Origin: a virus
Lineage: Duplodnaviria; Heunggongvirae; Uroviricota; Caudoviricetes
IMG/VR virus record: IMGVR_UViG_2740892369_000029
Reading direction: 5' to 3' (one strand)
DNA: 13,322 bases
The notes under the pieces are model-generated. The model saw nothing but the letters and a program-made list of their open reading frames with translations, did no database searches and was not told where the DNA came from. Within the stretch, counting starts at the first letter, position 1; the number at the start of each line of letters is the position of its first letter. The position numbers were made by a program, and so were the translations under genes. Positions 7,235 through 8,425 of this stretch are shown piece after piece.

Positions 7235-8425
7235 TTATATAGCTGGTGACTCTTTTCGAAGAGCATCAAGGTAGTCAGCGTACCATTGCATCATTTCTCG
7301 TCTTCCTTCAAGGTAACGAGCATGGTTGTATGTACCACGAATGCTGTTTTTGTCCGTATGTGCAAGTTGCATTTCAATCCATGCACTATTGAATCCTTGC
7401 TCGTGTAGAACAGTACTCATTGTATGACGAAATCCATGCCCGGTAGCTTTTTTGTCATAGCCAATCTTCTTCAAAACCATATTGACGCTTGCATCGCTGA
7501 TAGGCCTGTTAACATCATTTCTTCCGGCAAAGATGTATCTGTATCTTCCAGTCAGTTCTTTGAGGATTTGCAGAGACTGGATTGCCTGATCTGACAGAGG
7601 GACGATATGCTCCTTCCTCATTTTCATCCGGGTCGGAGGAACTTCCCATATCTTTTGGGTAAAATCGATCTCACACCATTCCCCCATACGTAATTCTACT
7701 GTTCTCAGCCCTGTGAGCATCAACAATTTTGTAGCTTCACGGGTTACAATACTGCCGGTTTAGTTTTCGAGTTTGTATAAAAACTCTGGTAGTTCAGGAG
7801 GAAGCAGGAAAGGGTAATGTGTTCGCTTATAGCTTTTCATTGCTATAACCAGATCAGAAGCTGGATTGTATCGTGCCCGACCTGTAACAATGGCATACCG
7901 AAACACTTCACCACATCGTTGGCGAACTTTATTAGCTAGCTCGCAGGCTCCTCGGCTTTCGATACGCTGAAGAACTGCGAGAAGTTCAAGAGGTTCGATT
8001 TCACTAATGGGTCTGTTTCCAATGTAGGGAAACACATTATTTTTGAATGCTCTGTCGACATAATCAGCGTAGCTGGCAGACCAGCCTGAAACTTTTGCGT
8101 TGTACCACTCGGTGGCGATTGCGGCAAAAGTTCTTCCTTCGGAAAGGTTTTTCTCAAGATTTTCAGCTTTCTTGACTTCACCGGGATCTTTACCATCGGC
8201 ATGTATTTTCTTGGCTTCATCCCGACGTTTGCGAGCTTCAGCCAATGTAATAGTTGGATAGGTGCCAAATGATAGTTTCTTTTCCTTCCCCGCATAGTGG
8301 TACTTCATTCGCCAGTACTTTGAGCCGTTAGGATTGACCTGAAGGTAGAGCCCACCACCATCGGCAATCTTATAAATTTTATCTTTGGGTTTGGCTGTTT
8401 CAACTTGTCGAGCTGTCAGTGGCAT
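7235..8425 (-). pseudogene. IntS/P4-type tyrosine integrase (N-terminal DUF4102-like arm-binding domain plus C-terminal catalytic domain) interrupted by an in-frame TAA at 7760-7762
   Basis: The ORFs 7760-8452 and 7235-7726 are in the same frame, separated only by one TAA; the 11 codons between the stop and the next start codon read through as TGSIVTREATK. The N-terminal part (MPLTARQVETAKPKDKIYKIADGGGLYLQV...ANKVRQRCGEVFRYAIVTGRARYNPASDL) and C-terminal part (LMLTGLRTVELR...GHGFRHTMST...IRGTYNHARYLEGRREMMQWYADYLD) carry the conserved R, HxxR and Y catalytic motifs. The likely true start is the ATG at 8425 (MPLTARQ), not the TTG at 8452. Confidence 0.8.

Follow-up and report, generated by a model that had tools for sequence, protein, structure and literature searches.

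The window analysed here is a stretch of 13,322 nt, the features of which are collected in the table below. On its minus strand, between 8425 and 7235, lies a frame related to the P4/CP4-type tyrosine recombinases; on translation it comprises 396 sense positions and a terminal TAA, and a single in-frame stop interrupts it at codon 222 (TTA at 7760-7762 of the plus strand, i.e., TAA on the coding strand). In the list of open reading frames, the two halves of the integrase appear as separate ORFs of the same frame (7760..8452 and 7235..7726). A conceptual protein with X at the stop has three Pfam matches in order, each (nearly) full-length and well above its gathering score: Arm-DNA-bind_3 (PF13356; residues 3-88, E=4e-28), Phage_int_M (PF22022; residues 100-193, E=1e-33), and Phage_integrase (PF00589; residues 207-371, E=2e-26). 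This three-domain match is far beyond chance, and it reproduces the architecture of P4/CP4-type integrases, namely arm-binding, SAM-like core-binding, and catalytic domains. The catalytic signature (R..H-x-x-R..H..Y) is encoded as well, by R241 (LRTVEL), H330 and R333 (HGFRH), H356 (LAH), and Y366 (RGTY), all of which are in frame and have aligned counterparts in IntS, the integrase of the neighbouring prophage; these residues lie 3' of the stop and are not translated. As the frame is interrupted at codon 222, the ORF is classed, from its sequence, as a pseudogene of the P4/CP4-type integrase family rather than as a functional member. RefSeq records the gene in the same way for E. coli O26:H11 strain 11368 (NC_013361.1), as a pseudo 'tyrosine-type recombinase/integrase' with an internal stop; at the level of annotation the pseudogene is already known and nothing novel.

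Table. Features of the window around the integrase pseudogene (positions count from the first letter of the window)
Feature	Position	Strand	Basis
Int-proximal island cargo	1..7234	.	ORF list, Pfam, RefSeq
Hypothetical protein, 338 aa	481-1497		
HSDR_N-domain protein, 786 aa	2141-4501	+	
Frameshifted IS3-family transposase	4678-5817	+	
PapB-like gene, apparently truncated (PapB/FocB-like fragment), 51 aa	5814-5969	-	
AT-rich ORF-free stretch, 1.26 kb	5970-7234		
Integrase pseudogene of the argW genomic island, P4/CP4-type tyrosine recombinase	7235..8425	-	Translation, Pfam, RefSeq
Catalytic portion no longer translated: R241, H330, R333, H356, Y366 (intact-protein numbering)	7235..7759	-	Motif location
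Premature TAA, codon 222; ancestral codon TAC (Tyr)	7760..7762	-	Translation, intact-allele comparison, 57-nt probe
Translatable N-terminal fragment, 221 aa, arm-type DNA-binding and central core-binding domains	7763..8425	-	Pfam
Int-proximal arm of the island, between core and int ATG	8426..8599	-	Identity with island-only spacer
16-nt att core CTGCAGGGGACACCAT, 3' end of tRNA-Arg argW plus T	8600..8615	-	Matches published KplE1/IntS core
Prophage-side arm, torI stop to core	8616..8688	-	Joined to csc in island-less strains
torI, 66-aa recombination directionality factor of the neighbouring P22-like prophage, not of the island	8689..8889	-	Translation; WP_001163428.1

The initial annotation, made from the letters of the window, had described an otherwise full-length integrase with conserved catalytic residues and an in-frame TAA at 7760-7762, at roughly codon 222. 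Translation bears out the stop, and the three Pfam domains together with the R/H/R/H/Y motifs bear out the rest. Only its placement of the stop just upstream of the catalytic domain needs adjustment, as the TAA falls about 15 residues inside the Pfam match at 207-371, although it does precede every catalytic residue.

The nature of the lesion becomes apparent when intact alleles are considered. A search with the gene alone returned 266 genomes with near-full-length copies of the integrase, four of which were fetched for comparison. The intact 396-aa gene of FDAARGOS_536 and AR_0061 (WP_001131472.1) differs from the window at one of 1,191 nt, and this sole position is nt 666 of the gene, where codon 222 reads TAC (Tyr) in the two strains and TAA in the window; the mutated base is a C-to-A transversion on the coding strand, i.e., G to T at plus-strand position 7760. 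Strain R1 carries a second intact allele (WP_001131474.1), which is 96.6% identical and also has TAC at codon 222, and the IntS sequence aligns straight through this position, with Phe there, a residue that is aromatic like Tyr. As window and intact alleles are separated by one base in 1,191, the ancestral codon 222 is TAC. The gene has an intact orthologue that differs from it at the stop only, with no frameshift or other lesion, and this is the pattern of a single-substitution pseudogene. Thus, the inactivation by a single substitution proposed in the initial annotation is upheld, and the alignment with intact alleles supplies the codon that was replaced (Tyr222). Its alternative, that orthologous integrases naturally end at this point, fails, since WP_001131472.1 and WP_001131474.1 are intact (396 aa each) and IntS spans the position. 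The claim that inactivation was recent is right in so far as no second substitution has accumulated, but the stop is not private to one strain. Indeed, the integrase gene of O111:H11 strain 8D is identical to that of the window and is likewise marked in RefSeq (PGAP) as having an internal stop, and the TAA mutation predates the split of O26:H11 11368 and O111:H11 8D.

The question of which element owns this integrase is answered by the surroundings of the gene. In strain 11368, the order is tRNA-Arg argW, an intact intS (385 aa), a P22-like prophage of about 40 kb, torI, an att core, the int pseudogene, and then a CP4-44-like, IS-ridden island of about 27 kb, which is followed by a third core, the csc genes, and dsdA. 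The prophage encodes P22-family capsid, portal, tailspike, and ejection proteins, as well as Arc, lysis, nin, CII, Kil, ERF, and anti-RecBCD functions. The island carries the truncated PapB-like gene, IS3 and IS66 copies, hypothetical genes, and genes for Ag43, a DUF932 protein, an antirestriction protein, a JAB protein, and a YeeU antitoxin, whereas beyond its core lie cscB, cscK, cscA, cscR, a dsdX remnant, and dsdA. The three cores of 11368 are situated at argW, at 8600-8615 of the window, and at the right end of the island, and all share CTGCAGGGGACACCA; moreover, a 19-nt repeat, ATTCCTGCAGGGGACACCA, is found at argW and again at the far end of the island before cscB, so that integration at a tRNA 3' end with flanking direct repeats is evident. 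The 16-nt core in the window, CTGCAGGGGACACCAT, has been published as that of KplE1/IntS recombination at argW (PMC2951348), and in the KplE1-type layout intS lies at attL and torI at attR, i.e., at opposite ends of the prophage (PMC2951348, PMC3509656). ARAGORN predicted no tRNA in the window, and no Rfam family reached its gathering score there; of argW, the window contains just the final 15 nt, within the att core.

The two arms of the middle core come from different elements. On the integrase side, the segment from core to int is base-for-base identical to the argW-int spacer of FDAARGOS_536, a strain that has the island only; with the argW-intS spacer of the prophage it gives no meaningful alignment. 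In island-only strains, the int gene lies 175 nt downstream of argW. The match stops 5' of the core, where the argW gene body is found in the island-only strain and the prophage arm in the window. On the other side, the same torI-arm-core sequence directly joins the csc genes in the island-less strains F2_407_2_2 and DEC9B. Since the core-int side equals the island-only spacer and the other side is a prophage arm, the window spans a tandem junction, and 8600-8615 is a hybrid site in which the attR of the prophage is fused to the attL of the island. From this arrangement, with three cores and a middle one that has one arm from each element, it follows that the dead integrase belongs to the CP4-like island on the left and not to the torI prophage on the right, whose IntS/TorI/att module is complete. 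By analogy with KplE1, the int-proximal arm presumably holds the int promoter and arm-type sites; a consensus promoter scan of 7000-9000 left the interval from core to int ATG without a site and gave a single hit, inside the ORF. The initial annotation had stated that the adjoining element was immobilised. The element affected is the left-hand island (1-8599 of the window plus about 19 kb outside it), rather than the torI prophage with its intact IntS about 40 kb away next to argW, and immobilisation itself is what we infer.

Among the closest known systems, the locus of FDAARGOS_536 and AR_0061 shares 1,190 of 1,191 nt of the integrase gene, the identical argW-int spacer, and the same PapB-like gene and IS3 remnant downstream; it differs in having TAC at codon 222 and in that the gene lies directly beside argW, with no prophage between. 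The IntS/TorI module of KplE1 (CPS-53), HK620, and Sf6, in which the role of TorI as a recombination directionality factor (RDF) has been described (PMC3509656, PMC2951348), has in common with the pseudogene the target argW, the 16-nt core, and the three-domain integrase. However, the pseudogene is not IntS: it encodes 396 rather than 385 aa, is 48% identical to IntS, has unrelated arms, and lies on a non-phage island; thus, the core alone is shared, and not the combination of integrase and att arms that is conserved in IntS modules. The true IntS/TorI module of this genome is that of the neighbouring prophage, whose torI and attR fall inside the window, and no cognate RDF was recognised beside the integrase pseudogene. 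With CP4-44, CP4-57, and CP4-6 of E. coli K-12, the island shares a P4-like integrase at a tRNA gene and heavy IS decay, and it resembles CP4-44-type cryptic elements in its cargo (Ag43, a YeeP-like GTPase, DUF932, antirestriction, JAB/RadC-like, and DUF987 proteins, and a YeeU antitoxin). It is distinguished from the K-12 elements by its integration site (argW), by its own integrase allele, and by a lesion that consists of a single nonsense codon.

Integrative elements are well known to be stacked in tandem at a tRNA attB. The best explanation of the locus, and a very probable one, is that an island whose integrase was killed by a nonsense mutation and a separate, intact prophage are stacked at argW. 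A CP4-44-like island of roughly 27 kb is integrated at the 3' end of argW in the O26:H11/O111:H11 lineage, and one C-to-A transversion has converted Tyr222 (TAC) into TAA. Translation thereby ends after the arm-binding and core-binding domains, before all catalytic residues, and without R241, H330, R333, H356, and Y366 no strand exchange would be expected, which would leave the island unable to excise itself or to reintegrate. Because the stop precedes every catalytic residue, self-excision is presumably lost, as judged from the established biology of tyrosine recombinases. The integrations may have taken place with the island first and the phage second, or in reverse. The most direct route would be entry of a P22/HK620/Sf6-like phage, by means of its own IntS, into the argW attB regenerated at the left end of the island. 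Excision of the prophage by IntS and TorI may still be possible and would restore the configuration of O111:H11 8D, where the TAA allele is present and the island lies directly at argW with no prophage. The tandem junction itself is present in 70 complete genomes. The argW island of the O26:H11/O111:H11 lineage thus no longer has a recombinase of its own, and it is probably fixed in the chromosome of that lineage.

A trivial explanation would be that the TAA is a sequencing or assembly error and that the integrase is intact, as the initial annotation had also considered; indeed, just one base separates the window from the intact allele. However, a 57-nt probe centred on codon 222, in its TAA version, was found exactly in 79 complete genomes, a set of large genomes (5.35-5.9 Mb) of O26:H11 and O111:H11 that come from many laboratories and different platforms, while 191 further genomes match the probe with one or two mismatches, and all three of those inspected carry TAC. 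As the exact sequence recurs in 79 independently assembled genomes, the stop is inherited and not a read error. In addition, many O26:H11 chromosomes of E. coli contain 7100-8700 at 100% identity, several genomes match the whole window at 100% in a single piece (e.g., strains 97-3250 and FORC_028), and PGAP independently assigns an internal stop in 11368 and 8D, which leaves an error with next to no probability. torI and the integrase could also be taken for the two partners of a xis-int module in the style of lambda, in which case the disabled element would be the prophage on the right. The appearance of the locus invites this reading, since torI lies 263 nt upstream of the int pseudogene on the same strand, much as in a xis-int operon. 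Yet the 16-nt att core sits between the two genes, the core-to-int segment is identical to the argW-int spacer of island-only strains, which lack the prophage, and the prophage has an intact IntS of its own beside argW, in keeping with the published KplE1/HK620/Sf6 module, which has intS at one end of the prophage and torI at the other. Furthermore, the two integrases are only 48% identical, and the same torI-core end is kept in strains without the island. On this architecture (intact IntS, intervening att core, and identity with the island-only spacer), a single torI-int module was rejected, and such a partnership is extremely improbable. For the annotation of similar loci, it should be noted that an excisionase gene followed by an integrase gene does not necessarily form one module; here, an att core parts two stacked elements.

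Two further alternatives concern what the island and its remnant might still do. The island might remain mobile if the intact IntS, with or without TorI, acted in trans on the shared argW core and excised the island alone or together with the prophage. All three att sites do share CTGCAGGGGACACCA, IntS is homologous to the island integrase (48% identity), and a close lineage has the same prophage end and precisely lacks the island, core to core. In F2_407_2_2, DEC9B, 7_33_46A, and B1_2, the torI-arm-core sequence is joined directly to the csc flank (cscB) and the island of about 27 kb is absent (the core-csc junction lies at 6086-6100 and 14071-14085 in the loci fetched from F2_407_2_2 and DEC9B, L008 and L012). 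However, the int-proximal arms of island and prophage are not meaningfully alignable, so that arm-type sites for IntS and sites for TorI are unlikely to exist on the island arms. Moreover, unrelated E. coli, among them strain W, commonly show a junction of this kind, with an IntS-type prophage and no island, so that its presence need not mean loss. The relationships of the strains point in the same direction. In 13.4 kb of chromosome on the right flank, polarised with E. coli W as the outgroup (about 110 differing sites), 11368 and 8D differ at one site and share two derived alleles, whereas F2_407_2_2 and DEC9B are identical to each other, carry three private alleles, and differ from 11368 at six sites. 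Although this comparison comprises only six variable sites and lies beside a recombination hot spot, it suggests that the island-less pair forms a sister lineage of the TAA clade instead of branching from inside it. The island may have been either lost or never gained in that lineage, and on this sister-group pattern (thin data, six variable sites) its loss after the integrase mutation is unsupported. Action of IntS in trans is, on the whole, unlikely.

Alternatively, the split gene might still be functional: the stop might be read through, the catalytic part might be made separately, or the DNA-binding 221-aa fragment might regulate or compete at the hybrid att site. The N-terminal ORF does keep complete arm-binding and core-binding domains as well as its native upstream region, and IntS of KplE1 autoregulates its own promoter by binding at attL (PMC2951348); in addition, the PDB sequence matches of the fragment (2kj8 and 3ju0) are solved N-terminal/central domains of the CPS-53 and CP4-like integrases. 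Against this stand an ancestor with a plain TAC codon and no recoding signal, as well as the in-frame TTG/ATG codons at 234-247 after the stop, upstream of which no Shine-Dalgarno-like sequence was found; a separately translated catalytic fragment was rejected as unsupported on the latter grounds. Furthermore, the integrase pseudogene of some O26 genomes (PV0838, 08_4358, and 12689) is interrupted by IS600 near nt 1004 (coding strand), as would fit secondary, neutral decay of a dead integrase. Continued function of the split gene is thus very unlikely. Taken jointly, it is distinctly unlikely that either the 221-aa remnant is still made and binds the hybrid att site (the attR of the prophage), modulating excision by IntS/TorI or repressing transcription across the junction, or that the island can be mobilised in trans by IntS. 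If trans-mobilisation through the shared 16-nt core did occur, it would explain the island-less DEC9B/F2_407_2_2 lineage. Given the preferred reading of a nonsense-killed island integrase next to an intact prophage, the significance of the locus is local only and no open biological question is addressed, but the TAA allele could serve as a lineage marker.

Further observations concern the remainder of the window. In the cargo of the island, the ORF at 2141-4501 has N-terminal HSDR_N/HSDR_N_2 matches and no other Pfam match; it is intact in the window, whereas its counterpart in 11368 is split by an IS3-family insertion into two annotated CDSs. The PapB/FocB-like fragment abuts the IS3 transposase, and since it matches only positions 19-57 of the 91-position Pfam model, it appears that the IS truncated a fimbrial regulator gene. 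Between this fragment and the integrase pseudogene, the stretch at 5970-7234 contains no ORF of at least 50 aa and no Rfam match (GC content is 25-30% across 5900-7100), and other strains conserve it beside their intact integrase. A second single-nonsense pseudogene lies at 12529-12693 on the minus strand, where the window covers the prophage. This gene of the DUF2737 family has an in-frame stop at codon 29, and the annotation of 11368 likewise marks it as having an internal stop. The prophages of F2_407_2_2 and DEC9B share this lesion, a sign that all of these prophages may belong to one lineage.
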